Source: an uncultured Syntrophomonadaceae bacterium (GTDB lineage Bacteria; Bacillota; Dethiobacteria; DTU022). From it: a stretch of 64,000 nucleotides of DNA. The stretch lies in the NCBI GenBank assembly GCA_964492615.1, contig CAZBKZ010000002.1, positions 1,323 to 65,322 on the forward strand. The letters are read 5' to 3'. Below the pieces are notes generated by a model. It saw only the letters and a program-made list of their open reading frames with translations, made no database searches and was not told where the DNA came from. Below are positions 838-23,968 of the stretch, in pieces. The translations under genes were made by a program, and so were the position numbers. Every line of letters begins with the position of its first letter. The stretch's first letter is position 1.

Positions 838-1899
838 TTACTTTGCTTGGCTGACCAGCATTACTTTCGATGGCGCTATGTGAAGGCGTAATCTTTCTGA
901 TCTGTTAAGAGATGCTCCATATGTTTTTGGCACTCTGATCTGCAGGCGGGAGTCCCCGTTGCCACCTCCGGGAGTCGTAAGCATGACCACGGTCGAAGTA
1001 ACGTCATCAATAACCTGGTTAATCATGCAAGTAATGTTGTTGCTAACTACTCCGTTGGCAAAGACCAGGTCATCTTCTTTTACCACGACATGTGAAATGC
1101 AGGTTGGTACCACATTGTTTGTGCTTAACCTTGCTCCCCAGTCAATTGCATCAACGGTGTAATCGTCGATGGCCCTGGCGCGGGAGATATTTTTTAGACC
1201 AAGGATTAGGCATTCTGAAAGGGTGGAAGGAGCTTCAAAAAGATCTCTTACTGGCTTTTTTCGCTCCGCGTAACCATCGTTTAGAACACAAACGCTGTCG
1301 CTTAAGCGGTAAACTTCATCCTGCTTGTGTGAGACAAGCAAGGAAGTTCCCCCGTAAGATTCTAAAACTTCAATTAGTTCAAGCTCAAGCTGCCATCTGA
1401 GGTGTGAATCAAGGGCTGAGAACGGTTCATCCAGCATTAGCAGTTTCGGATTGTTGATCAGGATCCGCGCCAGGGCAACCCGCTGCTGTTGTCCGCCGGA
1501 TAGCTCGGCGGGACGTTTTTTCTCCTGGCCGCCAAGCTTCATCCGCTCAACCATGGCTGCGACCGCTTTTTGCCTCTTGATCCAGCCCATTTGCCTTGTA
1601 CCGCAGGCGATATTCTCTTCCACAGTCATGTTTGGAAACAAGGCATACTGCTGAAACAGGTAGCCGACCTGGCGCTTCTGGGGTGGCAGGTCGATTCCCT
1701 TATTTGAATCGAATAAAATCTGCCCGTCAAGTACAATTTTTCCCGCTGCCGGTTTTTCAATGCCCGCGATGCATTTCAAGGTCATGCTCTTGCCGCTGCC
1801 GGAGGTGCCAAGAAGGGCCATCTTTTCACGGGTGGCTTCGAAAGCCACTTCAAGGTTAAAGTTAGGCAAGGTCTTCTTAATATCTACCACCAACGCCAT
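838..1899 (-). CDS. modC: Molybdate ABC transporter ATP-binding protein with a C-terminal TOBE/Mop domain.
   Basis: Walker A GTSGSGKS, ABC signature LSGGQQQRVALAR, and a C-terminal molybdate-binding TOBE-like region. It is the last gene of the modABC operon. Confidence 0.9.
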   Translation of the reverse strand: MALVVDIKKTLPNFNLEVAFEATREKMALLGTSGSGKSMTLKCIAGIEKPAAGKIVLDGQILFDSNKGIDLPPQKRQVGYLFQQYALFPNMTVEENIACGTRQMGWIKRQKAVAAMVERMKLGGQEKKRPAELSGGQQQRVALARILINNPKLLMLDEPFSALDSHLRWQLELELIEVLESYGGTSLLVSHKQDEVYRLSDSVCVLNDGYAERKKPVRDLFEAPSTLSECLILGLKNISRARAIDDYTVDAIDWGARLSTNNVVPTCISHVVVKEDDLVFANGVVSNNITCMINQVIDDVTSTVVMLTTPGGGNGDSRLQIRVPKTYGASLNRSERLRLHIAPSKVMLVSQAK

Positions 1900-1920
1900 A
1901 AACTGAAACCCCCCTTTCGT

Positions 1921-2601
1921 TTAAACAGCATTTTTTGTCCTGATGGTCAGGTTTCTTTTTTCAAGCATGTTAACCGCCAGTAAAACTACTGCAGAAATAG
2001 CAATGTTGATTATGACCCAGCGAAGGGCCATTTCATCATTATTAATCCGCCAGTATTGATAGACGGTGGTCGCTATCGTAGCGGTATTACCCGGAATGTA
2101 GCCGGCAATCATGATCGTTGCCCCGAATTCACCAAGCGCCCTGGCGAAAGCTAAAACCGTGCCGGCCAGGATGCCCTGCCGACAGTAAGGCATGCGGATC
2201 CGCCAGAAAATAAAAGTATTTGAAAGACCTAAGGTCTGTCCAGAGTAGGCCAGGGTTTCATCAAAGGCCTCGAAAGCCCCCCGGACTGTACGATACATTA
2301 AGGGAAAGGAAATGATAACAGTGGCAAAGATGGCGCTCCACCAGACCATGACCAGCTTGATGCCGAATAGATCCTGAAAGAATATGCCGATCGGGTGGTT
2401 AGGACCAAGAATTCTGATGATCAGGTAGCCGACAACCGTGGGCGGCAGGACCAGAGGCAGGGTTAAAAATACATCCAGGAAACCCTTGATCACCTTGTTG
2501 GCTCTGGAAATGTGGTAGGCGAAAAAAATACCGAGGAAGAATACGGCTATGGTTGAGATAAGGGCGATCCTGATTGAATTAAGAAGTGGGAAAAAATCCA
2601 T
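1921..2601 (-). CDS. modB: Molybdate ABC transporter permease.
   Basis: Polytopic membrane protein with the EAA-like permease loop (AFARALGEFGATIMIAG). It lies between modA and modC. Confidence 0.9.
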   Translation of the reverse strand: MDFFPLLNSIRIALISTIAVFFLGIFFAYHISRANKVIKGFLDVFLTLPLVLPPTVVGYLIIRILGPNHPIGIFFQDLFGIKLVMVWWSAIFATVIISFPLMYRTVRGAFEAFDETLAYSGQTLGLSNTFIFWRIRMPYCRQGILAGTVLAFARALGEFGATIMIAGYIPGNTATIATTVYQYWRINNDEMALRWVIINIAISAVVLLAVNMLEKRNLTIRTKNAV

Positions 2602-2715
2602 ATGATACTCCTTATATCGCTGATTCAGTCATTTCTGTATATATTCAGCCGTGCCTGTCAGAATTATAGATCTGCTTATCCCACAGGCACAGCCGGAACA
2701 ACATGGTGCCTAAGG

Positions 2716-3600
2716 CTAACGGATCGGGGTAAAGCCGAAAGCTTCTAATAAAGCAGCCCCTTCAGGACCTGTTAAAAAGTCCAGGTAGGCTTTAGCTTCA
2801 TCAACTGCCTTACTGCTCTTCATAACTGCGGCGGGATAAATAACCTGTCCGTCGGTCATCTCCTTGGTTGCCTGATCGACTACCTCAAGATTGGCGGCCT
2901 TGGCATCGGTGGAGTAGATCACTCCGCAATCAACAAGTCCCTCTGCTACCTGGGTTGTAACCTCCTTTACCGTTGAGGCATACGTGATCACCCCGGAGGC
3001 GGCCAGGGCCACTTCATCAAGGCTGTAGTATAATAATATTTTTGAAGTATATTGACCCACGGGAACATCAATATTGCCCATGGCCATTAAAATATCGCCT
3101 TCAATAAGGCGCGTGGCCAGTTCATCAAAACTGCCAATATTGCCGGGATTGCCGCCGGGCACTGCCAAAACTACCTTGTTTTCAAGGATGTTTTTACGGG
3201 TTTCTTCAAGGACAAAATCCAATTGACCTACATTGACTGCCGGGTCTGCGCTGATGTCAAGTTCATTCATTGCTTTTTGGGCGGCGGAAATATATACGTC
3301 GCAATTGGCGCCCTCTTCAATCTGGGTTTTAAGGGTTCCTGAGGAATCGAGGTTTGTAATAATCGTAACATGCGGGTTTGCCTCCATGTAGGCCCTGTTT
3401 ATTTCTTCAATTACTTCAGTCATGGAAGCAGCGGCGAAAACAATTAGTTCAACATCCTGCGCTTCGGGAGTAGTTACTTCGGGATCGGCATCTTCTGCAA
3501 GCTTGCTGTCCCGGATTACCACTTCATTTGTGCTACAGCCGGCAATGCTGAACAGCAGAAACAGTGCCAGCAAAACATAAAAGATTTTTTTATAGTTCAT
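2716..3600 (-). CDS. modA: Molybdate-binding periplasmic lipoprotein.
   Basis: ModA-family sequence. Start chosen at ATG 3598-3600 (MNYKK...), which has a GGAGG RBS. The lipobox is LFSIAGC. The longer ORF to 3648 lacks an RBS. Confidence 0.85.
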   Translation of the reverse strand: MNYKKIFYVLLALFLLFSIAGCSTNEVVIRDSKLAEDADPEVTTPEAQDVELIVFAAASMTEVIEEINRAYMEANPHVTIITNLDSSGTLKTQIEEGANCDVYISAAQKAMNELDISADPAVNVGQLDFVLEETRKNILENKVVLAVPGGNPGNIGSFDELATRLIEGDILMAMGNIDVPVGQYTSKILLYYSLDEVALAASGVITYASTVKEVTTQVAEGLVDCGVIYSTDAKAANLEVVDQATKEMTDGQVIYPAAVMKSSKAVDEAKAYLDFLTGPEGAALLEAFGFTPIR

Positions 3601-3615
3601 TACCGAACCTCCTGC

Positions 3616-3663
3616 AATATATATTCTTGTTCGAAAATATATTCTCAAATGAGAGTATATATT
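3616..3663. promoter_or_regulatory. Candidate ModE-type operator in the divergent modA / modE-like promoter region. It carries repeated ATATAT/TATATA motifs and an imperfect inverted repeat.
   Basis: AATATATTCTC..GAGAGTATATATT imperfect palindrome, with three ATATAT blocks between the divergent starts. Confidence 0.35.
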
Positions 3664-3772
3664 AAAAATTCCTGGCTGGCAATAATTAATTTGAAAAAAT
3701 TATTATTCATTGTTATGATCCAGTTAGGATATTGCATGTATTTTAGCTAAAATTATCTGTAGAGGTTGGAAA

Positions 3773-4129
3773 ATGTTGAATAAAATGCACCCAAAAACCA
3801 GGTTAACCATCTATAATGATTACAAGCCGGCAGCAAGGGGTTTCGGGCGCGGAATAGTCATGCTCCTGGATAATATAGAGAATACAGGATCTATTAAAAA
3901 AGCTGCCCGGACCATGGGAATGGCTTATTCAAAAGCTTGGAAGATGTTGACAGAGGTTGAGAAGGAATTTGGTATTAATCTGCTCAAGCGAGACGGGCAC
4001 AGGGGATCAACTTTAAGCCCGCAAGCCAAGCTGTTGCTTGATGCATATAAAAGTGCCTTGAAAGAGGTTGATGAAACCACCGAAAGCGCCTTTAAAAAAC
4101 ACTTTAAGGATCTGCGTTTTGATAGATAA
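3773..4129 (+). CDS. ModE N-terminal-domain-like winged-HTH regulator. It is short and has no Mop/TOBE domains.
   Basis: GSIKKAARTMGMAYSKAWKMLTEVE...LLKRDGHRGSTLSPQAKLL matches the ModE/LysR-type HTH domain. It is divergent from modABC. Confidence 0.75.
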   Translation: MLNKMHPKTRLTIYNDYKPAARGFGRGIVMLLDNIENTGSIKKAARTMGMAYSKAWKMLTEVEKEFGINLLKRDGHRGSTLSPQAKLLLDAYKSALKEVDETTESAFKKHFKDLRFDR

Positions 4130-4230
4130 GGATGATCGTTATTAAACCTGTAAAATCTGCTTGCTTTATTAGCTTTTCTAATCCTGCATAATGAATAATT
4201 ATATCTGACCGCATAAACAATGAAAGGTCT

Positions 4231-4256
4231 CTGCTATGTCAATATTGACATAGCAG
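4231..4256. promoter_or_regulatory. Perfect 26-bp palindrome CTGCTATGTCAATATTGACATAGCAG. It is either an operator or a terminator hairpin.
   Basis: Perfect inverted repeat about 100 nt downstream of the modE-like stop and about 780 nt upstream of the mop start. The downstream T-tract is weak. Confidence 0.5.
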
Positions 4257-5034
4257 CTATTATATGTTTTAATTGTTACGATTATAGATGTTTATTAAAC
4301 ACCTTGTAGGGTGAACTGTTGCTTGTTGGCCTGCCTGGTATTAATTAAAGCATAAAGAAGCAATGCAATAAGCTGCGAGTAACTAAATAAAAGAACGGTC
4401 ACTGCTAAACTGTGAAACATTCGAACTTCAGTTGCTTAAGCTGTTAGCTATGAACCGGAGATTTTGTGGTGTGGGATGAAACATCTAATTCTCCCGTTTC
4501 GGAAAGGGTGTTTAGTTTGTGGCCTAATATTGTTTCGTTTCAACTTGCGAAATTATTCACATGATACTCCTGTTGAAGGTTTTTACCTTTCGCAGGAGTT
4601 CTTGTTTTTATAAGGTATTTTGCTAAATCTTAACAGGGAGATTAGATCCTCTGAAAACATATTTCACAGTTGTTGGAAATATACATCAGGTGATTGTATG
4701 CTACAAACTGTGCTTAATTGCTCTCCAGGGTAACAGCCTTCATCTTGCTGATATGGAAGTGAGTAATAAAGCCGGCCAGGATAAAAGTTGGTGAGATGGC
4801 TAATTTTGCTGACAGAATCTGGTCAGAAAATTTCAGTTGCCTTTACTCTGTGAGCATGATGTTCAGCTGTTACGTATCTGACTAAGGGCTGGTTGTTTGG
4901 AGGAGCAGCCGGTATTTTTGATTTTGATTACAGTAAAGCTGTTTGGTTTAGTCCGGTTCTTTTTCTTGGAGAGGAGGAGATTGAACAAGTTATAAAGGCG
5001 ATGCAGTCACTAATTTAGGCGAGGAGATGAAAAA

Positions 5035-7752
5035 GTGCTAAAAAAAGTTATAACGGTAAATGGATTGGAAAGAACCCTAATTGTTGAGCCGGAAAGAAGT
5101 TTGGCAAGTGTTCTCAGGGAACAGCTTTTACTGACAGGCTGTAAAGTCGGTTGCAACCAGGGTCAGTGCGGGTGCTGTTCAGTGGTTCTTGATGGCGAGG
5201 TTGTCCGTTCCTGCGTAACGAAGATGAAGCGGGTACCTGATTATGCTGAAATTTGGACCATTGAGGGGATCGGAACCGCCCAAAACCTGCATCCCTTGCA
5301 GGTGGCCTGGATGGCCTATGGTTGTGCCCAGTGTGGTTTTTGCAGTCCGGGCTTTATCATGTCGGCCAAGGTTTTACTGGAGAAGAACCCCGATCCGACC
5401 AGGGAGGAAGTTAGAGACTGGTTCCAGAAAAACCGCAATGCCTGCCGTTGTACCGGTTACAAGCCGCTTGTTGATGCAGTGATGGCGGCGGCCAAGGTTC
5501 TGCGGGGCGAAATGCACAAGGAAGAGCTGCTCTACAAACCGGTGGGCAACAAAATTTACGGCACTAATTACCACCGTCCTTCGGCGATGCAAAAAGTTAC
5601 CGGAACCTGGGACTACGGCGCCGATGTAGCCTTGCAGATGCCCTCTGACACCCTGCGTCTGGCCCTGGTGCAGGCCGAAGTTTCACATGCAAACATCAAG
5701 GGTATTGATACATCTGAAGCGGAAAAGATGCCCGGTGTTTATCAGGTTATCACCCACAAGGATGTAAAAGGTAATAACCGGATTAATGGTATGGTTACTT
5801 TCCCCTCAAACAAGGGAGATGGTTGGGATCGCCCCATCCTTTGTGATGAAAAAGTTTTTCAATACGGTGACACCATTGCCATAGTTGCCGCCGATACGGT
5901 TGAGCATGCCAGGGCGGCAGCCAAAGAAGTTAAAGTGGATCTGGAAGTTTTACCTGCCTATATGAGCGCACCGGCGGCCATGGAGTCCGATGCTATAGAG
6001 ATTCACCCTGGAACTCCAAATGTTTATTTTGAGCAGGGTGTTGAAAAGGGAGAAGACCCGAAACCCTTCATGGAGAACAGCGATCTTGTAACTGTAGAGG
6101 TTAGCACGATCTGCAGCCGTCAGCCTCATCTAATGTTGGAACCAGACTGTGGTTCTGCCTATTTTGATGAAGAAGGACGGTTAACCATCCACTCCAAGAG
6201 TATCGGTATTTACCTGCACCGCGATATGATTTACGAAGGGCTGGGCATTGAGCCAGAAAATCTACGTATTGTGGCCAATCCCACCGGCGGCACCTTTGGG
6301 TATAAATTCTGCCCCACCAACGAAGCTTTACTCGGTGTGGCATGCATGGCTACCGGAAAACCAGTCTCTCTTGTATTTGACATGCACCAGACCATTACCT
6401 ATACCGGAAAACGCTCTCCCGGCTTTGTAACTTGCAAATTGGCTGCAGATAAGGAAGGTAAACTGTTGGCGATGGAGTCAGATTGGACCATTGATCATGG
6501 CCCGTACTCAGAATTTGGAGATCTACTGACCTTGCGCCTCGCTCAGTTTATAGGGGCCGGTTATGATATCCCCAATATTAAGGGTAAAGGACGCACAGTT
6601 TGTACTAATCACGCCTGGGGAGCCCCCTTCAGAGCCTACGGCTCACCGCAGTCTTTCCTGGCTTCTGAAACGGCAATGGATGAGTTGGCGGAAAAACTGG
6701 GCATGGACCCCTTCGACCTGCGCTTTAAAAACATCTATCGTCCCGGAGCGACCACACCGTCACAGCAGGTGCCGGATGTTTACTGTTTTGAGGATATGTT
6801 TAACAAGCTTAGGCCTCACTGGGAAGAAGCGAAAAAACGCTGCAGCGACTTTAACAAACTCGGAAAAAAACGTGGTGTTGGGCTTTCCCTTGGCATTTAC
6901 GGTTGCGGCACCGACGGCCCCGATACCTCGGAAATATTTGTGGAACTGACAAAAGAAGGGGTTACCGTTGGCAGCACCTGGGAAGATCATGGGCAAGGGG
7001 CAGATATCGGCACCTTGACCCATGCCCACGAAACCTTGCGTCAGGCAGGAATCAAGCCGGAGCAGATCAGACTGGTCATGAACGATATGGCCCTTTCACC
7101 CGATAGCGGCCCCTCAGGCGGGAGCCGGCAAAACCTGGTGACCGGTAATGCACTCAGGGTTGGCAGTGAAAGACTCATTGAAGCGATGCGTAAGGAGGAC
7201 GGAACATTCCGCACCTATGACGAGATGGTTGCAGAAAATATACCGCTACGTTATGAGGGTAAGTGGACTGCAAGCATGTGCACCATGTGTGATGCTGAAA
7301 AAGGGCAGGGGGATCCTTTTGCCGGATATGTTTACGAACTCTTTATGCCCGAGGTGGAAGTTGACCTTGAATCGGGCAAGGCAAAAGTGGTTAAGTTTAC
7401 CACGGTTGTAGACTGCGGCACCATTTCGAACAAGAGTGCAGTAGACGGCCAAATCTACGGAGGGTTGGCCCAGGGCATAGGTCTGGCTCTTTCCGAGGAC
7501 TTTGACGATTTGGAAGTTCACACTAACCTCCTGAAATGCGGACTTCCCTATATTAAGGATGTTCCCGATGACATGGAGATCATTTACAATGTTGAGCCGC
7601 GCCCCCATGGGCCTTATGGCGCTTCCGGAGTCGGTGAAGGCCCGTTGACCGCACCTCACCCGGCTATACTTAACGCAATCTATAATGCCTGCGGTGTCAG
7701 GATTTATGATATTCCAGCACTCCCGGAAAAGATTAAAGCCAAGCTTAAATAA
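5035..7752 (+). CDS. mop: Molybdopterin aldehyde oxidoreductase of the D. gigas MOP type: an N-terminal plant-type [2Fe-2S] domain fused to a xanthine-dehydrogenase-family Mo-MCD domain, with no FAD domain.
   Basis: GTG start with a GAGGAG RBS. Cys motifs CNQGQCGCCS and CAQCGFCSPGF. The a/b-hammerhead and Moco-binding regions are present. 905 aa. Confidence 0.85.
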   Translation: MLKKVITVNGLERTLIVEPERSLASVLREQLLLTGCKVGCNQGQCGCCSVVLDGEVVRSCVTKMKRVPDYAEIWTIEGIGTAQNLHPLQVAWMAYGCAQCGFCSPGFIMSAKVLLEKNPDPTREEVRDWFQKNRNACRCTGYKPLVDAVMAAAKVLRGEMHKEELLYKPVGNKIYGTNYHRPSAMQKVTGTWDYGADVALQMPSDTLRLALVQAEVSHANIKGIDTSEAEKMPGVYQVITHKDVKGNNRINGMVTFPSNKGDGWDRPILCDEKVFQYGDTIAIVAADTVEHARAAAKEVKVDLEVLPAYMSAPAAMESDAIEIHPGTPNVYFEQGVEKGEDPKPFMENSDLVTVEVSTICSRQPHLMLEPDCGSAYFDEEGRLTIHSKSIGIYLHRDMIYEGLGIEPENLRIVANPTGGTFGYKFCPTNEALLGVACMATGKPVSLVFDMHQTITYTGKRSPGFVTCKLAADKEGKLLAMESDWTIDHGPYSEFGDLLTLRLAQFIGAGYDIPNIKGKGRTVCTNHAWGAPFRAYGSPQSFLASETAMDELAEKLGMDPFDLRFKNIYRPGATTPSQQVPDVYCFEDMFNKLRPHWEEAKKRCSDFNKLGKKRGVGLSLGIYGCGTDGPDTSEIFVELTKEGVTVGSTWEDHGQGADIGTLTHAHETLRQAGIKPEQIRLVMNDMALSPDSGPSGGSRQNLVTGNALRVGSERLIEAMRKEDGTFRTYDEMVAENIPLRYEGKWTASMCTMCDAEKGQGDPFAGYVYELFMPEVEVDLESGKAKVVKFTTVVDCGTISNKSAVDGQIYGGLAQGIGLALSEDFDDLEVHTNLLKCGLPYIKDVPDDMEIIYNVEPRPHGPYGASGVGEGPLTAPHPAILNAIYNACGVRIYDIPALPEKIKAKLK

Positions 7753-7782
7753 AAGGTCGGTTTTGTGGGTTCACCTTGAGGA

Positions 7783-7810
7783 GAACTGTCGTATCTTGTG
7801 GCGACAGTTC
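7783..7810 (+). promoter_or_regulatory. Stem-loop GAACTGTCG-N10-CGACAGTTC between mop and the downstream oxidoreductase gene.
   Basis: Perfect 9-bp inverted repeat. There is no U-tract, so it is either a weak terminator/attenuator or an operator. Confidence 0.35.
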
Positions 7811-7863
7811 GCTTCAACCGCTATCATCATGCAACATAGACCGATTCAAAGGGAGAGCTCAGG

Positions 7864-10210
7864 ATGGATCATAATTATTTGCACGAGGTAGAGGCTAAAT
7901 GCACACAGGATCAGCAGCCAGGATGTGTGGCAGGTTGTCCTGTCCATGTTGACATTCCAGCATTGATTGCAGCTGTAAAAAAAAGGCGATTACTCGAAAG
8001 GTTTTGCCGTATTTAGAAAACATGTACCATTTCCCGGGATCATCAGCCATATTTGCAACCAGCCCTGTCAACTATCGTGCAAAAGGTCTGAGATAGATCA
8101 TCCTGTTGCAATTAATATCATGGAGCGGGTTTGTGTGCTGACTGGGGATGGCAGTTTGTCGGAAAGGTCGGGCGCCCTGCCGGTGAAAGAACGCAACAAA
8201 AAAGCAGCTGTTATCGGAGCCGGTTTAAGCGGCCTTACTGTTGCATGGGAGTTGGTAAAAAAGGGTTACCCTGTAACCATCTTCGAGCTTTCAGAACAGC
8301 CTGGAGGAAAAATTTTAAAAGAATCTGAAGAACGAATGCCGCGTCATATTATTGAAAAAGATTTTGCCCCGCTAATCAACAACTCCATGCTTGAAACCTG
8401 TTGGGGCTCCGGGGTTGGTGTCAGCGGCGGGATGGTTAACTTTGCCGATCTCCTTGCCCGTTATGATGCCATTTACCTAGGTACAGGTTCAAACTACGCG
8501 CTTCCTGCAGGGGTGGATCTCACCTTTGATGAGCAGGGGTTCCCCAGTCATGATCCAAAAACCCTGGCAACGGCAATTGACAAGGTCTTCATCGGCGGCA
8601 GCCTAATCCTGGAGAGCGAGAAAAGATCACCCATTGAATCAGTTAGCCATGGTAAAATAGCTGCTCTTTCTATTGACCGTTTCCTGCAGGGCGTATCACT
8701 GACTGCAGGGCGCTCACGAGAAGGGGCTTATGAAACCCTACTCTATACATCACTTAAAGGCATTTCCCCTGAACCTGTATATATTGAAGATCGACCGGGA
8801 GAATTACCAAATTCGGAACAAACTTTACAGGAGGCAAATCGCTGCCTTTTATGTACCTGCCTTGAATGTGTAAAGGCCTGCCCCTACCTGGAGCATTATG
8901 GGTCATACCCGAAAAAGTATGTCAGGGAGATTCACAATAACCTGATTATCATTAAAGGTGGGCGTGGCGCAAATGAAAAGATCAATAGCTGCAGTCTCTG
9001 CGGTTTATGTGCCGAAGTTTGTCCTGGCAATTTAGACATGGGCGAGTTTTGTTTCAAAGCCCGGAAGAAGATGGTCGAGACTGGCAAAATGCCCCCTTCA
9101 GCGCACGATTTTGCCTTGCAGGATATGGCATTCAGCACAAGTGAGCTGGTTGCCCTGCATAGGCACCAACCGGGTTTTAGCAAGAGCAGGGCCCTGTTTT
9201 TTCCCGGTTGCCAGTTAAGTGCTTCATCTCCACATTATGTAGGAAGGCTTTATACTTACCTGAGGGAAAAAATTGATGGTGGAGTTGGTTTGAGTCTCAG
9301 TTGCTGCGGCGCGCCTGCCCAATGGGCGGGCAGGGAAGACCTTTTTAATGAAAATATTGATTTACTGAAAAAAAACTGGACCGCATTAGGCAACCCGGCC
9401 ATTATTACCGGCTGCCCGACCTGCTTCAGTGTTTTCAGAAAGGTGTTGCCCGATCTGGATTGTGAGACAATCTGGACAGTTCTTGACCGGGTTGGCCTGC
9501 CAGAAAACAGCGGTGCCGGGGTTAAGATGAAAAAACTGGCTGTTCACGATGCCTGCACCACAAGGTACGACAAACCTCTGCAAAATAGTATTCGTAACAT
9601 TTTACTTGCTCTTGGGCACCAGGTACAAGAGCTTGAAAACAGCCGGGAGACAACAACCTGTTGTGGTTATGGCGGTTTGATGAGTTATGTTAACCGTGAG
9701 GTTGCCCGTAAAGTGGTTGAAAAGCGTATCGCCGAAAACCCTGAAGATTACCTGGCATACTGTGCCATCTGCCGCGACCATTTTGCGGCCCGGGGCAAAA
9801 GAACTTACCACCTTCTTGATCTCATTTTTGGCAGTTCTGACCACGACCTTGCAGGCGATCAAGGCCCTGGTTTTTCAAAACGCCAGGAAAACCGCTACCG
9901 CTGCAAGAAGAGCCTCTTAAAAAAAGTCTGGGGTGAAGAGATTCAAACCAGGGAGCCTGGCTTTGAACTGGCCATCAGCGCCGCCGTGCGCAGCAGCATG
10001 GAGGAGAGGATGATTCTTACCGGTGATATAATCGAAGTGATCAGTCATGCCCGCAGCAGTGGAAATGTAATGGAAAATACTGAAACAGGGACCATGGTCG
10101 CTTACTATAAACACCGCAACGTTACCTACTGGGTTGAATTCACCGTGGAAAACGAAAGTATCTATCACATTCAAAAAGCGTACAGCCACCGCCTAGTAAT
10201 TAAGGGGTAA
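7864..10210 (+). pseudogene. GltD-like NAD(P)H:FAD oxidoreductase fused to 2x[4Fe-4S] ferredoxin and HdrD/GlpC-like 2xCCG domains. It is interrupted by a +1 frameshift in an A8 tract at 7977-7984.
   Basis: ATG 7864 has a GGGAGAG RBS and encodes MDHNYLHEVEAKCTQDQQPGCVAGCPVHVDIP, the GltD N-terminal Fe-S motif. Removing one A joins it in-frame to ICNQPCQLSC...AVIGAGLSGL and so to ORF 8120..10210. Two CCG motifs are present (SCCGAP, TCCGYGG). Confidence 0.7.
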
Positions 10211-10221
10211 AGGAGAACCAA

Positions 10222-10416
10222 ATGAGTGAAACCAGTAAAATATTATGCAGCCGCTGCGGTATTTACTTGACCATGGGCACGGTTACCCTTACCTACCTGG
10301 AGGCCAGTTTCCCGGCTGAACTTTACAAGTGCGCTAAATGCGGCCTGGTCTACATCCCCGAGGATTTGGCTCTGGGCAAGATGGCGCAGGTAGAGAAAAC
10401 ACTGGAAGACAAGTAA
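10222..10416 (+). CDS. Small zinc-ribbon protein (CxxC-N24-CxxC).
   Basis: 64 aa with an AGGAGA RBS. Two CxxC pairs. Confidence 0.6.
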   Translation: MSETSKILCSRCGIYLTMGTVTLTYLEASFPAELYKCAKCGLVYIPEDLALGKMAQVEKTLEDK

Positions 10417-10448
10417 ACCAGCGGTATGTTTTAGGAGGTTAAAAGAAA

Positions 10449-10748
10449 ATGGTTAATAGAAAAACCGGGCCTGATCCGGAGGAAGAGCGCGCTGAAGTAA
10501 TCGAGGCTGACACTGTCACTATTGAAGTAGTTGACAAGACAACAGGCTGCCTTTATCGCCGACAGGTTCCCCTGTGTTATCACGAAAATAGCAACGGAAT
10601 CATACTAAAGGGCGAAAATCTTGAAGGGAAAAGTGCGGTTCTCGCGTTGCTGTCCGACCAAGCTCTTGCTAAATACAGTGACTTGATCGGGATGGGGCCG
10701 GATGCACCTACGCATCATAGTACTGAGAAAAAAAAGAGCAAAAGTTGA
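10449..10748 (+). CDS. Hypothetical protein.
   Basis: GGAGG RBS. No recognisable domain. Confidence 0.5.
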   Translation: MVNRKTGPDPEEERAEVIEADTVTIEVVDKTTGCLYRRQVPLCYHENSNGIILKGENLEGKSAVLALLSDQALAKYSDLIGMGPDAPTHHSTEKKKSKS

Positions 10749-10928
10749 ATGCATGCTAAAAATGAAATCCCACGACGCAGGAAAACCAGGTTATATATGA
10801 AAATGGTTTTATTTATTTAGTTGCCTTTGAAAACCATCAGTCCGGGAGGTATAGTTGTAACCGGTCAGTTTGATTGGTTTAATCATATTAATAAAAATGT
10901 GCTGTAATTATGGATGGAGGTATCGGTC

Positions 10929-11336
10929 ATGAATATTACAAAACGGGTAAATGAATTACTTTTACAAGGTCACTGCTGCAGCCAGATCATCATGAAAATG
11001 GGATTAGACAAAATGCAAAAAGAAAATGAAGATCTGGTAATCGCGATGAAAGGGTTGTCCCAGGGTATGTATGCCGGGACTGTCTGCGGTACTCTTTCTG
11101 CCGCTTCCTGCCTGCTCTTTCTCCTCTCAGTGAGCATGGGGCAAGATATGAGCACGGAACTGACTGGTTGGTTCGAAAAAGAGTTCGGAGTAATCGATTG
11201 TCCCGAATTGCTGGGCGATGACCCTGTTGGAGCAAGCTTGAGCCTCTGTCCGGAAATCATTCAGCGAACCTTTGCCGAAGTCCTCGAAGTAGCAGAACGT
11301 TATAATCTTTCCTGGGTGGAAATAACGAATGGGTGA
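10929..11336 (+). CDS. C_GCAxxG_C_C family putative redox-active protein.
   Basis: Cys pattern GHCCSQ / VCGTLSAASC / DCP / LCP. Start chosen at the ATG with a GGAGG RBS; the upstream ATG lies inside the RBS. Confidence 0.6.
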   Translation: MNITKRVNELLLQGHCCSQIIMKMGLDKMQKENEDLVIAMKGLSQGMYAGTVCGTLSAASCLLFLLSVSMGQDMSTELTGWFEKEFGVIDCPELLGDDPVGASLSLCPEIIQRTFAEVLEVAERYNLSWVEITNG

Positions 11337-11431
11337 TTGATATTTCAATAAATCCGACTATTTCCTGAGTGCAAACATTTTGTTTGGCACTGGGGTTACA
11401 GCTTCATTGATATGAGGAGGTTACTTTAATA

Positions 11432-12703
11432 GTGCTTGAAAAAACATCGCTTGATCGATGGGTTGCAGAAAAGATTGGTCTTCAGGATGAGGATAGCCTG
11501 ACCCCCCGGAAAATCTTGGCTTACCAGGATGTGATGCTTAAGAAACTGTTAGCCTATGTCAGTGTTAAAAGCCCTTTTTACAGGGAGCTCTATCGTAATG
11601 TTGATACTTCAGTTATTTCAGGCCTTGATGATCTATCCAGGTTACCCATGGTAGATGCGGGAGATCTTGTTGAACATAGCAGCCGGATGGTTTGTGTGTC
11701 ACAGAAGGAAATCAGCAGAATCGTTACCCTGGAGACAACAGGAACTACCGGTTCGCCTAAAAGAGTCTATTTTACTAACGAAGATCAGGAATTGACTATA
11801 GATTTTTTTCACCGGGGCATGCTTAACCTGATTGGCCCTTCAGACCACTTGCTGATTTTACTGCCCTGGGAAAGACCGGGAAGTGTAGGTGACCTGTTGC
11901 AAAAAGGTGTCAGGCGTATTGGCGCCGAGGTTACCTGTTACGGATTGGTGGATAGCCCTGAAAGCGTTGTAAACACAATTATTGCAAGAGGAATAACCAG
12001 CCTGGTTGGTGTACCGGTGCAGATTTTGTCCTTGGTTTATGCTCCCGGTGCAGAAAAAGTTAACCTGGCCGCTGTGCTGTTGAGTACCGATTATGTGGCT
12101 GGCAGCTTGGCCGGTAAGATCGGACTCCGGTTTGGTTGCCCGGTTTTTGAACATTATGGGATGACCGAAACCGGGCTTGGCGGTGCGGTTTCCTGCCGGG
12201 CGTTCCAGGGGTATCACCCCCGGGCCGCTGACCTGGTTTTTGAAATAATCGATCCAAATAGCGGGGAGCTTCTTGAAACAGGAGAAACCGGAGAAATCGT
12301 GGTTACTACCCTTACCCGTCAGGGAATGCCTTTCATTCGTTATAGAACCGGCGACAAGGGGCGTTTTCTGGCAAAACCCTGTCCCTGCGGTTCTGTTCTG
12401 CCCAGGCTTGATAAAGTTAAAGGCCGTTATTCTGAAGATGTAACTATGGGGGGGCAAACTGTTAACCTGGCTAATCTTGATGAACTTTTGTTTGCATTGG
12501 ATGGAGTTATAGATTACCAGGCCGAGGTGAAAAACAATAAAGGCAAAGAGTGGATCAAGGTGAATCTTTTGGTAGCCGATAACATTTTTAATATACCCGA
12601 GCACTTATCTTATGATGGCATAGATATCTACATTGATTGTGAAATAATTACCTTAAATGAAGCACCGGTTTACAGGAAAAGAAAATTTGTTAATACTAAT
12701 TAA
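11432..12703 (+). CDS. Phenylacetate-CoA ligase (PaaK) / F390-synthetase-family adenylate-forming enzyme.
   Basis: GTG start with a GAGGAGG RBS. P-loop-like TTGTTGSPKR and a PaaK-like C-terminal domain. Confidence 0.7.
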   Translation: MLEKTSLDRWVAEKIGLQDEDSLTPRKILAYQDVMLKKLLAYVSVKSPFYRELYRNVDTSVISGLDDLSRLPMVDAGDLVEHSSRMVCVSQKEISRIVTLETTGTTGSPKRVYFTNEDQELTIDFFHRGMLNLIGPSDHLLILLPWERPGSVGDLLQKGVRRIGAEVTCYGLVDSPESVVNTIIARGITSLVGVPVQILSLVYAPGAEKVNLAAVLLSTDYVAGSLAGKIGLRFGCPVFEHYGMTETGLGGAVSCRAFQGYHPRAADLVFEIIDPNSGELLETGETGEIVVTTLTRQGMPFIRYRTGDKGRFLAKPCPCGSVLPRLDKVKGRYSEDVTMGGQTVNLANLDELLFALDGVIDYQAEVKNNKGKEWIKVNLLVADNIFNIPEHLSYDGIDIYIDCEIITLNEAPVYRKRKFVNTN

Positions 12704-13009: not shown

Positions 13010-16000
13010 TTGAAACGAAGGGATTTTCTTAAACTTACCGGAGTAACTGGCGCAGGCTTGCTCCTTACCGACCTTGGGTTTAACGCAGCGCCGGTTGAAG
13101 CCGCATCTCAAACGATCAGAATTCACAATTCAGAAGAATTTTATTCTGTTTGTACTTTTTGTTCTTGCGGCTGCGGGATGATTTGTAGCGTTAAAGATGG
13201 GAAAATGATTAACCTTGAAGGTGACCCTGATCATATCGTCAGTGAGGGGGCCCTCTGCAGTAAGGGGGCAGCTATGGCGGTAATGCCCAACTCTGATCAA
13301 CGGATCAGGAACCCTCTCTACAGGGCGCCGCGCAGCAACAAGTGGGAAGAAATCAGCTGGGAAGAAGCTATCGACAAGGTTGCCAGGAAATTTGTTGAAA
13401 CCAGGGACGATTACTGGATCAGCGATGAGACTATTGACGGTACCACTTATAAGGTTAACCGCTGCGACGCAGTTAGCTTCATGGGCGGAGCTCAAAACAA
13501 TACAGAGGAATCATATCTCCTTTCTAAGATGTCGAGAATTCTGGGCGCCGTGTATGTAGAGCACCAGGCCAGGGTCTGACACAGTCCCACGGTCGCCAGT
13601 TTAGGCGCCTCATTAGGACGTGGAGCTATGACCAATCACTGGGTTGATTTAAAAAATGCCAAGGTCTTCCTGATCCAGGGTAGCAATGCTGCCGAGAATC
13701 ACCCCATGGCAGTAAAATGGATGCTGGAAGCAAAGAAAAAAGGGGCAATCATTATTCATGTCGACCCCCGTTACACCAGGACCTCATCCATTGCCGATAT
13801 TCATGCCCAGATTCGTCCGGGTGCGGATATCGCATTTCTAAATTCAATTATTAACTACATTATTACCAATAACCTTTATGATGAAGACTTTGTTATTAAC
13901 CATACCAATGCGCTATTGATTGCCAACGAAGAATTCGATTACCAGGACGGCCTTTTTTCGGGCTATAATGACGGTAAATTCAGTTACACCAACCTTTCCT
14001 GGGGTTATACCCTTGATGAAGAAAGCAAGCCTATTAAGGCGGAAAGTCTCGATGATCCTCGCTCTGTCTTCAGCAAAGCCAAGGAATTCTTCAAGCGCTA
14101 TGATTTTAAGGTGGCTTCCGATATCTGCGGGGTTCCCGAGGAAAAGATCAAGCTAATTGCCGATACCCTGGTTAACAATAAGCCTGGAACAATCTGCTAC
14201 GCCCTGGGGATGACCCAGCATACTACCGGCGTTCAGGGGATTCGTTCTTTCGGTATTCTCCAAATGCTCTTAGGGAACCTGGGCAAGCCGGGCAGCGGTG
14301 TTAACGCCATGCGTGGTGAGCCCAATGTGCAGGGAGCAACCGATATGGCCATGTTGTTCCATATCATTCCCGGGTACCTGGCTGTTCCCAACCACGATGT
14401 CGTGGATCTTGATACTTGGACTTCGCGGACCGGTACTTTTCGCCGGACTTTTATGACCAGTATTCTCAAAGCGTGGTTTGGTGACCACGCCCAACCGGAA
14501 AATGATTTTTGTTTTAATTGGTTACCGAAAAAGAACGGGCGTGAAAACTACTCACTCTTCAGGATCTTTGAGACAGCCCTTGATAAAAAGATGAAGTTTC
14601 TCTATATCATGGGTCAGAACCCCATGGTTACCAACCCTAACCTGAACCTGGTGCACGAATCACTGGGCAACCTGGATATGCTGGTTTCTGTTGACCTCTT
14701 TATGACCGAAACCGCCGCTTTCTGGGAAAAACCGGGTGTGGATCCGAGTACGCTTGATACGGAGGTAATTTTCCTCCCTGCGGCCTCTTTCCTCGAAAAA
14801 GAAGGAACCCTGGTTAATTCAGGGCGGATGGTTCAGTGGCGCTATACCGGGATTAAACCGGTCGGCAATTCAAAAACCGACCTGGAGATCATTGATTTGC
14901 TTTTTAACCGCATCCGCGAGCTTTACCAGGGTTCAAGCGACAGCAAGGATGAGCCCATTTTAAAGGCCAACTGGAACTACGAAGCAGAAGATTCTCCCTC
15001 TTTCTCAGAGGAAGTATTGAAGGAAATCAACGGTTACAATCTGGCCACCGGTGAACTCTTAAAAGGGATTGGCGAACTTAAGCCTGACGGAACCACTGCC
15101 GCGGGGAACTGGCTGTATGCCGGAATCTTCGCCAACAACCAGAACCATTCCAAGCGCAAGGATAACATTAACGATCCCGGCGGCCTTGGCATCTATCCCG
15201 GCTTTGCCTGGACCTGGCCCGGAAACTGTCACGTCTTATATAATCGTGCGTCTTGTGATGCTGAAGGTAAGCCTTATGATGAAGCCAATAAGTGTATCTG
15301 GTGGGATGAGGAAAAGGGTATGTGGACCGGGTATGACACTCCCGACGTGCCGAACAGGAACGACGGACCCGATACACCCAACGGCAAAAGACCCTTCCGG
15401 ATGGCCGGGGAAGGTCTCGCCCGTATTCTTGCCGGGCCCTACCAGGATCCCTTTGCCAATCAGCTTCTGCCCAGGGATTCATCAAGCGTCCCTGCCGACG
15501 GCCCGCTTCCGGAGCACTATGAACCCTTTGAGAGCCCTACAGAAAACGTTTTGCATCCCAACGTCCCAGTCAACCCCTGTGTTAAGTATCCCCGAATTCC
15601 GGATAAGCAGCCAATCGGTACGGCAGCGGATTACCCCTACGTTCTCTGTACATCAAGCATGGCAGAGCACTGGTGTGCCGGGACTCAAACCCGTAACATG
15701 CCCTGGTTAAACGAACTGCAGCCAGAAACATTTATTGAAATACCGAAAAACCTGGCTGCCGAAAAGGGCATCAAGAATGGTGACTGGGTAAAAGTCTGGT
15801 CTGCCCGGGGCGAAGTTGAGGCCAAGGCCCAGGTAACCCACCGTATCCATCCCCTTAAAATTAACGGCAAGGAGGTTGATGTGGTCTGGATGCCGTATAA
15901 CTGGGGATACAAGGGCCTTAGTCAGGCTGCCAGCACAAACTATGTGACTATTGATGCAGGCGATCCGAATACCTGGATCCAGGAAACAAAGTGTTGTCTG

Positions 16001-16021
16001 GTAAACCTGGATAAGGCTTAA
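13010..16021 (+). CDS. fdhA: Formate dehydrogenase catalytic (alpha) subunit. It is a selenoprotein (in-frame UGA = Sec at 13577-13579) with a Tat signal.
   Basis: Twin-arginine signal MKRRDFLKLTGV. Fe-S motif CTFCSCGCGM. Track ORFs 13010..13579 and 13628..16021 are in the same frame and are joined by HQARV-U-HSPTVASLG, the classic Sec motif. The molybdopterin domains follow. Confidence 0.9.
13591..13609 (+). ncRNA. Bacterial SECIS upper stem-loop for fdhA (cis-acting mRNA element).
   Basis: Hairpin GGUCGCC-AGUUUA-GGCGCC with a bulged U. It begins exactly 11 nt 3' of the UGA, the spacing seen in E. coli fdhF. A GU is present in the apical loop. Confidence 0.55.
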
Positions 16022-16142
16022 TCGATTATTGTAGCGCAAATTAAGAACCACTGGTTCTGGATGCTGAAGAATATAAACCCGTTAGCCTGCCGACAGCAGG
16101 CTCACGTGAAGCACACCTAAAACTACTCAAAGGCGGTTTAAA

Positions 16143-17021
16143 ATGAGCAACCAGGAATGGAGCAGCTTTGATAAATGGCTTAAAGAGCATCCTTATTTAA
16201 ATGAAATAGGAAGCTTCCACAGAGTTTTGTCAAAAGCTATTGAGGGTTTTGATAAAGAGCAATTCAGTAAAGATTTGCCGGTATCTGACTTAGAAGAAAT
16301 AAAGCAGGGATACAGTAAGGGTGTACCCTTGCTCAGCTCTTTAACGGAGATCAATATGGTTACTGGAATAGCAGGCAGCCTGTTTAAAAAAATAGTTAAT
16401 GCTCTGCTTGAGGCCGATTTACCTTCTAAAACGCTAGAACAGGTTAAAGCCCTTAGAGGTTATATTGAAAAGGTTCCTGATCTTCCAAGAAGGTTAATAA
16501 GGCTGGTTATTAAGGGCAGTAGTGATTCGAAACCTGAAGAGCTTGAATCTGTTTTTAACGATGTAAACGAAGGGTTTGTTAATTTTCTGGCCTGGTCCTC
16601 CTTATCTGCAATCCTTGAGCCTTTGAGAGAAGTAACTGGTGAGTTGCTGGAAGAGAAACCCTGGAGGAAGGGTTACTGTCCTTTGTGTGGGCATTTGCCG
16701 GCGATGGGCCAGCTAATAAGAACAAAAAGAGGGCGGGAACGGGAATTGATCTGCGGATGCTGCAAAATGAAATGGACCTATCGGCGCATTGGCTGTCCCT
16801 ACTGCGGAAACGAAAATGTCAATACGCTGAAACTGATTGAATTTGTTGAAATGCCCGAAATGCGCCTGGATACATGTGAAGAGTGCAAGGCTTATGTAAA
16901 GACATACATAAATCAGGGTAATGAACAGGTTGCCCTCGCAGATTGGTCTACCTTACACCTTGATCTTATCGGAAAAAATAAAGGATTTCAGAGGGTTGAT
17001 GAGTTTTTCTATGAACTTTAA
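16143..17021 (+). CDS. fdhE: Formate dehydrogenase accessory protein FdhE.
   Basis: Four CxxC pairs (CPLCGH, CGCC, CPYCGN, CEEC), typical of FdhE. Confidence 0.85.
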   Translation: MSNQEWSSFDKWLKEHPYLNEIGSFHRVLSKAIEGFDKEQFSKDLPVSDLEEIKQGYSKGVPLLSSLTEINMVTGIAGSLFKKIVNALLEADLPSKTLEQVKALRGYIEKVPDLPRRLIRLVIKGSSDSKPEELESVFNDVNEGFVNFLAWSSLSAILEPLREVTGELLEEKPWRKGYCPLCGHLPAMGQLIRTKRGRERELICGCCKMKWTYRRIGCPYCGNENVNTLKLIEFVEMPEMRLDTCEECKAYVKTYINQGNEQVALADWSTLHLDLIGKNKGFQRVDEFFYEL

Positions 17022-18210
17022 TCAAAATATATATTTGGATAATGCTGCTACTGGCTTTCCTAGGCCTGCAATCGTAACCGATTCAGTTAGTTGCTGGATG
17101 CTCGAAGAAGGCGGTTCTCCCGGTCGCGGTCATCATTTTCTGTCTCGCCGGGCCGGTGATCAGGTGTCAAAGATTCGCCGGCAGGTAGCCCGTTTTTTTG
17201 GGGTTAATGAAGAGTTCAGGGTTGCTTTTACCTTTGGTGCAACTGATGCATTGAACATGGCGATTAAAGGAATCCTGCGAAAGGACGATCACGTTATTAT
17301 CTCTGGAATGGAGCATAATTCTGTACTACGGCCTCTGCGCCATCTGGAAGCTGAAGGTTTAATCAGTATTGATGTTATATCCTGTAATGAAGAAGGCTAT
17401 CTGGTTGAAAATTTAATTTGGGAAGCCTTTCATGAAAAAACAAAATTAATAGTTATTAACCACGCTTCAAATGTAACAGGCAGTATACAGGCTGTTGCTG
17501 AGATAGGGGCGGAAATCCGTCGTCGGGGAGCATATTTGCTGCTTGATGCAGCCCAGTCAACTGGAAATATTCCGATCAAAATTGGTGAACTGAATGCTGA
17601 TATGATAGTTTTTGCCGGGCACAAGGGGCTTTTTGCCCTCCCTGGGGTAGGCGGTATGATTATTGGTGAGCGGATCAATCAACTAAATACATGGCGACAG
17701 GGAGGAACCGGCTATAATTCAAAATCGGAGACTCAGCCACTTAATTGGCCGGAAGCATTTGAAGCCGGAACAATGAATATGCCAGGTATAATATCACTTG
17801 GTAAAGGGATAGAATATATTGAGGAACAAGGCCTGGAAGCAATTGCAAGCCAGAAGATGGCTCATCTAAAATACCTGTGGGATACCTTATCGGAAATTGA
17901 AGGAATAAAGTTATACGGACCTAATCCGGAAAAGCCCAGGGTAGCGGTTCTCTCATTAAATATAACAGACTGGGAACCTGACGATGTTGCAGAAATATTG
18001 CAGCATAACTATAAGGTTCAGGTTCGTTCCGGGCTGCACTGTGCGCCGCTGGCCCATAATACCCTGGGTACAATGCCCAATGGTTCAGTCAGAATCAGTC
18101 CCGGGTATTTTACTAAGCAGGAAGACCTGGATACGGTTGTGCAGGCGATTAAGAATATGGCTTTAAGCAGAGTCGGCTGGAATCTTTTCAATGAAGCCCC
18201 GGCTAATTAA
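17011..18210 (+). CDS. Class-V aminotransferase: a group-II cysteine desulfurase or selenocysteine lyase (SufS/CsdA-like).
   Basis: PLP-binding Lys in FAGHKGL. Active-site RSGLHCAPLAH. Overlaps the fdhE 3' end. Alternative ATG at 16999. Confidence 0.8.
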   Translation: MNFNQNIYLDNAATGFPRPAIVTDSVSCWMLEEGGSPGRGHHFLSRRAGDQVSKIRRQVARFFGVNEEFRVAFTFGATDALNMAIKGILRKDDHVIISGMEHNSVLRPLRHLEAEGLISIDVISCNEEGYLVENLIWEAFHEKTKLIVINHASNVTGSIQAVAEIGAEIRRRGAYLLLDAAQSTGNIPIKIGELNADMIVFAGHKGLFALPGVGGMIIGERINQLNTWRQGGTGYNSKSETQPLNWPEAFEAGTMNMPGIISLGKGIEYIEEQGLEAIASQKMAHLKYLWDTLSEIEGIKLYGPNPEKPRVAVLSLNITDWEPDDVAEILQHNYKVQVRSGLHCAPLAHNTLGTMPNGSVRISPGYFTKQEDLDTVVQAIKNMALSRVGWNLFNEAPAN

Positions 18211-18345
18211 TTTGGGGTTTTGAACCGGGGAACAGGGCTTTGCGGAGATATTGTATCTTGTCAGGTGGTGATTTTACAGATCTGCTAGTCTTAGTATTGC
18301 CATATGCTGGTATAAACCAAGTAAAGTAAATGGTGGTGATAATTA

Positions 18346-19713: not shown

Positions 19714-19772
19714 TACTTGAGAACTTTTAAGCGCAGCTAAGATAAAAGAATACAAAGGAGGGATTTTCTAAG

Positions 19773-23018: not shown

Positions 23019-23129
23019 AGCTTAATTCAATTTGAAATAACTCAAACAGTAATTTTTCTAATCAAAACCCTGAAGAAATAATGCTAATCCTCAGAGAACA
23101 AAGGGTTAGCATTAGTAGCAGTATTTGCG

Positions 23130-23507: not shown

Positions 23508-23662
23508 ACCAATCCACCTCCGGTATAGTAATTCTCTAATAATAGTTTATATCCTTCTCCGTCATATCTACTGTTTTAGATAAGTTTAGGGCTTGGTAAT
23601 TACTTAATAATATGGAATAATTAAAATCATGTTAATAAGCGTTAATTAAGGAGGGTACACTA

Positions 23663-23824: not shown

Positions 23825-23857
23825 GGAGGGAAAATTTTTAAGGTCATTATGTCTATC

Positions 23858-23886
23858 TTGACATAATGTAAATTTTTCATTATAAT
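23858..23886 (+). promoter_or_regulatory. Perfect consensus sigma-A promoter TTGACA-N17-TATAAT upstream of moeA paralog 2.
   Basis: Exact consensus hexamers with a 17-nt spacer, about 80 nt upstream of the moeA2 start. Confidence 0.6.
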
Positions 23887-23968
23887 TTATTGACCCTTTA
23901 ATTATTTTACTATAATTAAGAAAATTAACAATATAATATTATATTCATGATTAATAATACAATAATAA

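Follow-up and report, generated by a model that had tools for sequence, protein, structure and literature searches.

Which protein takes up the electrons released by a molybdenum aldehyde oxidoreductase that has no flavin domain of its own? The question is raised by a locus within 64,000 nucleotides of contig CAZBKZ010000002.1 from an uncultured Syntrophomonadaceae bacterium (this whole stretch is hereafter called the window), where the gene for an aldehyde oxidoreductase of the Desulfovibrio gigas MOP type is followed by a gene for a fused flavin, iron-sulfur (Fe-S) and CCG-domain protein, here called the partner, and by a gene for a mini-protein with four cysteines. A preliminary description of the locus had proposed that the first two genes form a dedicated electron-acceptor module, in which aldehyde oxidation is coupled to NAD(P)+ (nicotinamide adenine dinucleotide or its phosphate) or to a thiol/disulfide acceptor. 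Comparison across genomes indicates that the pairing of the two genes is strongly non-random, that the partner has no NAD(P)H-binding domain and that its gene is split in the window by a single inserted nucleotide. With moderate confidence, the three genes are read as a co-inherited redox module in which the partner would serve MOP as a flavin relay in trans to a disulfide-type acceptor, a module that is probably inactive in this organism. The features on which the argument turns are:

5035..7752, + strand: MOP-type molybdopterin cytosine dinucleotide (MCD) aldehyde oxidoreductase, GTG start, 905 amino acids (aa), intact; identified by Pfam and by NCBIfam NF045668
7864..10210, + strand: DVU_1558-family flavo/Fe-S/CCG gene (the partner), 781 aa after repair of a +1 frameshift; NF045663
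7977..7984, + strand: A8 homopolymer with a 1-nt insertion; the zero frame ends at TAG 8013-8015
10222..10416, + strand: DVU_1557-family mini-protein with four cysteines (CxxC...CPxCG), DUF7479, 64 aa; identified by Pfam and by NF045645, 'DVU_1557 family redox protein'

On domain content and alignment, the product of 5035-7752 is a MOP-type aldehyde oxidoreductase, for which an MCD cofactor and the oxidation of aldehydes are predicted. A Pfam domain search identified Fer2 and Fer2_2 (two [2Fe-2S] clusters), the a/b hammerhead Ald_Xan_dh_C, MoCoBD_1 and MoCoBD_2, and found no flavin adenine dinucleotide (FAD) domain in the 905-aa protein; the NF045668 'molybdopterin-dependent aldehyde oxidoreductase' model scores it at 1609.9 bits against an equivalog cut-off of 1100. 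Alignment to the crystallised D. gigas MOP (PDB 1sij/1vlb) runs from end to end with 61.5% identity (1277 bits, 1sij_A) and the catalytic Glu within GVGE is retained. The D. gigas enzyme, at 907 aa, has the identical domain order and likewise no FAD domain. Both the combination of [2Fe-2S] and Mo domains without FAD and the match to the D. gigas architecture, as given in the preliminary description, are therefore upheld.

The extent of the second gene required correction. The open reading frames (ORFs) of this part of the window, all on the + strand, are 5035-7752 (905 aa), 8120-10210 (696 aa) and 10222-10416 (64 aa), and the partner gene had been taken to start at 8120. This start is wrong: the 367-bp stretch between the first two ORFs (7753-8119) is coding and not intergenic, given that a frame starting with the ATG at 7864, behind a good ribosome-binding site, reads MDHNYLHEVEAKCTQDQQPGCVAGCPVHVDIPALIAAVKK and that a +1 shift within the A8 run allows the frame to go on as GDYSKGFAVFRKHVPFPGIISHICNQPCQLSCKR...INIMERVCVL, which joins the 696-aa ORF. 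Removal of one A from the run yields a 781-aa protein that matches NF045663 over positions 2-758/759 at 957.8 bits (cut-off 530) and has at its N-terminus a Fer4_20 Fe-S domain (PF14691, E 5e-22), which had been overlooked. It is this full-length match upon removal of one A that identifies the real gene as 7864-10210 with a frameshift. The Mo gene and the partner gene are separated by 111 bp, in which no promoter-like or terminator-like site was found. The repaired partner corresponds over its full length to the family named 'pyridine nucleotide-disulfide oxidoreductase/dicluster-binding protein' (diclust_near_Sec; DVU_1558 of D. vulgaris) and shares the gene order of that family, MOP-type gene, partner and DVU_1557-family gene; whereas the other retrieved DVU_1558-family members are all uninterrupted at ~760-815 aa, the window allele alone is split by the 1-nt insertion. 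The break lies between both cysteine groups of the first Fe-S domain and, as a consequence, the two separate products are probably non-functional.

In the repaired protein the domains are ordered Fer4_20 Fe-S, FAD Rossmann, 2x[4Fe-4S] ferredoxin-like, two CCG domains and a C-terminal domain of ~125 aa. The N-terminal Fe-S domain is of the type found in GltD, NfnB and dihydropyrimidine dehydrogenase (DPD), with seven conserved cysteines. The Rossmann domain has its GxGxxG motif as VIGAGLSGL, matches NAD_binding_8 at residues 116-155 and is modelled with a predicted local distance difference test score (pLDDT) of ~90; flavin binding is predicted, with GS taking the place of GD in the flavin-binding G-D motif. 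The ferredoxin-like domain has the cysteines C327, C330, C332, C335 and C339 and then C376, C379, C382 and C386, and both CCG domains have a complete C-X(n)-CC-X(n)-CxxC motif, the first with C449, C480-C481, C517 and C520 and the second with C564, C599-C600, C633 and C636. The Fe-S and CCG cysteines are all invariant in the 26 partner sequences compared. In the predicted structure (mean pLDDT 78) the N-terminal half resembles NfnB, StnC, GltD and DPD, and for the C-terminal half the match is EtfD (9ojn), a CCG protein.

The partner has no NAD(P)H-binding domain. When aligned to Thermotoga maritima NfnB (4ylf_B), partner residues 10-211 correspond to NfnB 36-237 and residues 205-276 to NfnB 391-461, with no counterpart in the partner for the ~150-residue NADPH Rossmann domain (NfnB ~238-390). 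The spacing between the two flanking FAD-domain motifs is merely 20-33 residues in all 26 family members, and both the sequence and the predicted structure of the partner have a single GxGxxG motif and a single Rossmann fold. Of the architecture first assigned to this protein, a GltD-like NAD(P)H:flavin module with ferredoxin and HdrD-type CCG domains, the Fe-S/FAD unit, the ferredoxin domain and two CCG domains therefore stand and the NAD(P)H module does not. Compared with NfnB, GltD and DPD (4ylf_B, 5jca_L, 2vdc_G, 1gt8), the partner shares an Fe-S domain followed by an FAD domain, in sequence and in predicted fold, but lacks the NADPH domain and is fused to an HdrC/HdrB-like C-terminal half. 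Compared with the CCG proteins of the HdrD/HdrBC type (heterodisulfide reductase, DsrK, TfrB, EtfD and LdhH), it shares the 2x[4Fe-4S] unit followed by two CCG domains, but is soluble, fused to a flavin unit and without a membrane or haem b domain. The C-terminal domain of ~125 aa (window 9827-10207) is conserved, with an invariant W, VTYW.E and Y.HR, and matches no family; a search for PDB folds gave no match at E <= 0.001. A RelE/BrnT/MqsR-like toxin fold was considered for it and is not relied on, given the weak matches (E 0.012-0.35; best E 0.012 with a template modelling score of 0.43). That MqsR pairs with a Zn-ribbon partner is a curious but unsupported parallel to DUF7479.

Co-occurrence was assessed from both sides of the pair. 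A scan of species-representative genomes with the partner-family alignment gave at least 583 loci, of which the best 80 were analysed; these come from Bacillota and Negativicutes, Spirochaetota, Nitrospirota, Chloroflexota, Acidobacteriota, Desulfobacterota, Myxococcota and Proteobacteria, and the co-occurrence loci span at least eight phyla. Where more than 3.1 kb of upstream DNA was available, a MOP-type gene lay directly 5' of the partner on the same strand in 69 of 70 loci; the gap had a median of 176 bp, and the single exception is locus L083, described below. In the reverse scan, anchored on the Mo enzyme in metagenomes, the partner lay directly 3' of the Mo enzyme in 58 of the 60 loci with at least 1.5 kb of downstream sequence, and in one of the two exceptions it was found farther downstream, after an insertion. 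DUF7479 directly follows the partner in every one of 133 loci. The pairing of Mo enzyme and partner is thus strongly non-random, and phylogenetic co-occurrence, by which the preliminary description had suggested that the pairing be judged, bears it out in all three counts. The divergence of the Mo enzyme is correlated with that of the partner (Spearman 0.76, n=129), which is consistent with co-inheritance and is no proof of interaction.

Two further arrangements link the three genes more closely. Locus L052 has tandem, diverged copies of the entire trio of Mo enzyme, partner and DUF7479 (6356-12528 and 13390-18907), the second of which is 44%, 31% and 40% identical to the respective proteins of the window, and in L080 and L158 the partner and DUF7479 form a single ORF (845 and 895 aa). 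Given the duplicated trio and the single ORFs, the evidence points to the Mo enzyme, the partner and the mini-protein as one functional unit. The mini-protein of the window, first described as a Zn-ribbon protein following the partner, is confirmed as a four-cysteine DUF7479 protein with an NF045645 score of 93.9 bits, and is probably a subunit or a detachable C-terminal domain of the partner.

From this gene content a physical partnership, a direction of electron flow and a kind of acceptor may be inferred. It is suggested that the FAD domain that other xanthine-oxidase-family enzymes possess, and that is missing in MOP, is supplied in trans by the partner. Oxidation of the aldehyde at Mo would send electrons through the two [2Fe-2S] clusters to the [4Fe-4S]/FAD unit of the partner and, given that the partner is without an NAD(P)H site, its flavin would serve as a relay and not as a pyridine-nucleotide dehydrogenase. 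From there, two further [4Fe-4S] clusters would carry the electrons to the pair of HdrB/HdrD-type CCG sites, which would reduce a disulfide-type or similar oxidised acceptor, either a small protein or a small molecule, and not NAD(P)+. A disulfide-type acceptor at the two complete CCG motifs is plausible and fits the invariance of the CCG cysteines; bacteria, to which the hosts belong, are not known to make the methanogen cofactors coenzyme M and coenzyme B. In this organism the module is probably inactive or leaky, because the first Fe-S domain of the partner is split and several accessory genes are lost. It may be fully inactive or be expressed at a low level by slippage, in which case the intact Mo enzyme would depend on general carriers of the flavodoxin/ferredoxin type.

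Several observations weigh against this assignment. The Mo enzyme is intact beside a broken partner and therefore has no strict dependence on it, and MOP was reportedly purified and crystallised from D. gigas without this partner. The FAD domain is weakly conserved among the Desulfovibrionaceae members of the partner family, and not every enzyme with CCG domains reduces disulfides, exceptions being EtfD, lactate-utilisation proteins and GlpC. The neighbourhood encodes maturation proteins for the molybdenum cofactor (Moco) and biosynthetic-looking enzymes (radical S-adenosylmethionine (SAM) protein, methyltransferase, ligase and phosphatase), which the partner could serve instead. At L083, a second copy in Sporomusa sp. 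KB1 ~37 kb from L022, the partner, DUF7479, C_GCAxxG, TrsS and ligase genes are present without an adjacent Mo enzyme. Finally, flavodoxin accepts electrons from MOP in vitro and the interaction has been modelled by docking (Barata 1993, Krippahl 2006, as summarised in PMC6274584); in the literature covered, reconstitution and docking are the grounds on which it is named as the acceptor of MOP. Flavodoxin would likewise be a flavin partner in trans for a xanthine-oxidase-family enzyme without FAD, but it is a general carrier encoded elsewhere, whereas the proposed partner is encoded beside the Mo enzyme and co-inherited with it. As to the surroundings of L083, it is preceded by a rhodanese gene, and farther 5' lie a gene for an ArsM-like methyltransferase/DUF2703 fusion and a plasmid-type Rep gene.

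In most genomes the trio heads a larger cluster with a SAM methyltransferase, a C_GCAxxG_C_C protein, TrsS and an AMP-dependent ligase, and with XdhC, a MocA-like transferase and cysteine desulfurase as its Moco maturation proteins. Almost all genes of the cluster have an NCBIfam model of their own:

NF045668: Mo enzyme
NF045663: flavo/Fe-S/CCG fusion
NF045645: DVU_1557 family mini-protein
NF045667: DVU_1556 family methyltransferase
NF045669: DVU_1555 family C-GCAxxG-C-C protein
NF045646: radical SAM (seleno)protein TrsS
NF045666: DVU_1553 family ligase
NF045664: XdhC-family 'aldehyde oxidoreductase maturation factor'
NF045665: DVU_1551 family NTP (nucleoside triphosphate) transferase

The families and their neighbourhood are already curated by name, and the window is a damaged example of this curated, uncharacterised kind. 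The preliminary description had noticed neither the larger cluster and its curation nor the frameshift and the erosion of this locus. A literature search on DVU1551-DVU1559 found no experimental work on DVU_1551-DVU_1558, only entries of 'unknown function' in proteomics tables; no paper linking 'HdrD-like' with 'aldehyde oxidoreductase' was found in the literature covered, beyond which a published account of the pairing may exist. A 2026 review credits Haft & Tolstoy 2025 with TrsS. The genome of D. gigas has, 3' of the MOP gene, genes for a nitroreductase, the partner, DUF7479, a methyltransferase, a C_GCAxxG_C_C protein, a radical SAM protein, an AMP-dependent ligase, XdhC, a histidine phosphatase and a HEAT-repeat protein, and many start and stop codons in this cluster overlap. 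The D. gigas cluster is complete and intact, whereas the window is without methyltransferase, radical SAM protein, XdhC and phosphatase and its partner gene is frameshifted. The nitroreductase-family gene (L088 12800-13414), which lies between MOP and the partner, was not noticed in other loci, although no search was aimed at it. A hidden selenoprotein was considered near L019 and rejected, as an in-frame stop divides the Zn-ribbon ORF from a homologue of the downstream 99-aa protein (p99, below) that has its own start codon.

The composition of this cluster raises the possibility that the partner and the mini-protein belong to the maturation or biosynthetic pathway formed by its remaining genes (TrsS, methyltransferase, ligase, phosphatase, XdhC, MocA-like transferase and cysteine desulfurase) and are not the catalytic acceptor of MOP. 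The two proteins might then feed electrons to the radical SAM protein or reductively mobilise sulfur or selenium for the assembly of a cofactor, with MOP as the beneficiary or as a source of low-potential electrons. This is the main rival to the electron-relay reading, and it is supported by the conserved co-location with the XdhC-family 'aldehyde oxidoreductase maturation factor', the DVU_1551 NTP transferase, cysteine desulfurase and TrsS, by the DsrC-like and cysteine desulfurase genes found 5' in the nearest relatives and by L083, where rhodanese is followed by the partner-TrsS-ligase block without an adjacent Mo enzyme; moreover, DsrK-like CCG proteins are generally known to act on protein-bound sulfur. 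Nevertheless, it is possible rather than probable, for three reasons: first, the tightest linkage is that between the Mo enzyme, the partner and DUF7479, with the other genes varying in order and presence. Second, the duplication in L052 covers the trio as a unit, and the other cluster genes do not occur twice in the stretch examined. Third, the crystal structures of D. gigas MOP are generally known to contain MCD and [2Fe-2S] clusters of the ordinary kind, and no special cofactor that would call for such a pathway. Given the variation of the accessory genes, the arrangement at L083 and a Mo enzyme that is intact although its partner is broken, the maturation pathway retains a minority share of the probability.

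The fate of the accessory genes in the window bears on the frameshift. The features concerned are:

10449..10748, + strand: 99-aa cluster-associated protein 'p99', conserved, with homologues in 63 related loci
10914..11336, + strand: C_GCAxxG_C_C protein, DVU_1555-like (PF09719 E 7e-17; NF045669 95 bits, just under the 103-bit cut-off)
11432..12703, + strand: DVU_1553-family AMP-dependent ligase, PaaK/F390-synthetase-like (NF045666 426.6 bits, cut-off 300)
4869..5027, + strand: 3' relic of a cysteine-desulfurase-family gene (tblastn 29/75 identical to the intact gene of L005; 22-aa internal gap and in-frame stop)
4407..4526, + strand: Moco riboswitch-like element, membership not established (RF01055 at 20.6 bits against a gathering threshold of 36, E 0.013-0.038; P3 stem missing)

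In the nearest relatives, L005 and L006, a DsrC-like gene and an intact cysteine desulfurase gene lie 5' of the Mo enzyme, the latter directly so, where the window has kept only the relic; the 900-bp 'non-coding' stretch 4130-5034 is therefore in part a deletion scar. Between p99 and the C_GCAxxG gene these relatives carry a methyltransferase gene that is missing from the window, and the whole 64 kb contain no TrsS, XdhC, MocA-like transferase or CobC-like phosphatase. Taken together, the gene losses, the relic and the frameshift suggest an ongoing loss of the accessory system around a Mo enzyme that stays intact. The region 5' of the Mo enzyme in L005 and L006 (positions 1-2716) encodes, besides the DsrC-like protein and the cysteine desulfurase, the C-terminal portion of another Mo protein of the xanthine-dehydrogenase family, an arrangement that hints at sulfur trafficking linked to the cluster. 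At Rfam gathering thresholds no match was found over the whole window, and a relaxed search gave only the sub-threshold Moco-like element; above-threshold Moco riboswitches lie a few kb 5' of the cluster in two of the six relatives scanned (L019 3289-3403 and L009 3370-3491, at 60.6 and 51.9 bits).

It is also conceivable that the frameshift does not inactivate the partner, either because the A8 run is an artefact of sequencing or assembly or because slippage during transcription, or a +1 shift of the ribosome on A-AAA-AAA-AGG, still yields the full-length protein. In support of this, the remainder of the gene is an uninterrupted 743-codon frame with 79% identity to the nearest intact relative, a +1 slip of tRNA-Lys from AAA to AAA yields exactly the conserved VKKGDY and slippage of RNA polymerase on A-runs is well established. 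An artefact would nevertheless have to recur, since the identical A8 is found in four separately assembled metagenomes from four Joint Genome Institute (JGI) samples (3300033170, 3300033173, 3300033174 and 3300033176), otherwise identical to the window; these do form one sample series and presumably share one sequencing technology. Furthermore, ~50 other homopolymers of 6-8 nt in the window sit within intact ORFs, including a second A8 in the partner gene itself, and a general homopolymer error is accordingly unlikely. Given the agreement of the four assemblies and the intact ORFs around the other runs, the frameshift appears to be a true mutation. Neither a conserved shift nor a stimulatory context was found that would mark a recoding site: the shift occurs in no relative, with L005 and L006 (partner 79% and 76% identical) having A5 or A7 at the site and remaining in frame, and no Arg codon is used more often here than AGG (11.9 per 1000), which leaves no hungry-codon stimulus. 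A Ty1-like programmed +1 ribosomal frameshift at AAA-AGG-C was rejected on the same two grounds. A run of eight is also shorter than those usually reported for efficient slippage, as far as is generally known, and the neighbouring genes are eroded too. A functional full-length partner in this organism is thus unlikely.

A bolder extension of the electron-relay reading is that the DVU_1558-type protein is a single-polypeptide analogue of HdrABC built on a flavin unit of the GltD/NfnB type. The FAD would then stand at a three-way junction, with the [2Fe-2S] clusters of MOP on one side, the N-terminal [4Fe-4S] pair leading toward ferredoxin on another and the C-terminal [4Fe-4S]/CCG unit leading toward a disulfide on the third, and the complex would be a new kind of flavin-based enzyme that bifurcates or gates electrons, driven by aldehyde oxidation; it might also be a dedicated low-potential reductant for the TrsS pathway. 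This proposal is speculative and is considered rather improbable. Least probable is the coupling of aldehyde oxidation to NAD(P)+ reduction through an NAD(P)H:flavin module: although the N-terminal half of the partner is homologous to GltD, NfnB and DPD and relatives are labelled 'glutamate synthase (NADPH) small chain' or 'NAD(P)-binding protein' in the sources, the unmatched NADPH domain of NfnB, the short spacing common to all 26 members and the single Rossmann fold leave the coupling unsupported.

Of the genes that accompany the module, p99 matches no Pfam or NCBIfam family and has the consensus IEA..VTVEV.D..TG..FRR.LP..Y.ET.NG..L.GE.LDG. Its position varies among the 63 loci (for example L019 13330-13614 and L007 17426-17863), and in loci from human-gut metagenomes it is often just 5' of the Mo enzyme. 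Loss of a conserved C-terminal cysteine from it was considered as a sign of decay and rejected, as the intact relatives L005 and L006 share the loss, which is therefore lineage-specific. The cluster lies within a molybdenum 'island' with modABC-like transporter genes on the minus strand and a ModE-N-type helix-turn-helix regulator at 3773-4129 (window 838-4129 in all), and two MoeA paralogues are encoded downstream (21780-25270). RnfC- and RnfD-like genes lie at 18346-20768. A formate dehydrogenase alpha subunit with a twin-arginine-type signal is encoded at 13010-16021 (+ strand), where an in-frame TGA at 13577-13579, within EHQARV*HSPTV, is likely a selenocysteine codon that makes one gene of two listed ORFs.

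For the family as a whole, ~98% of the loci that were examined have the partner gene beside a MOP-type gene. These loci come from many phyla and include that of D. gigas, whose MOP is the structural archetype of the xanthine-oxidase family, and this makes the partner a concrete candidate for the physiological partner of these enzymes. The missing NADPH domain removes one plausible chemistry, namely coupling to NAD(P)+. If the partner were indeed a single-polypeptide HdrABC analogue, it would fill the place of the physiological partner that has long been missing for the textbook MOP of D. gigas. The significance is smaller in the window, where the partner is broken and the cluster reduced; there, the persistence of the Mo enzyme without a working partner bears on the need of the partner for catalysis.

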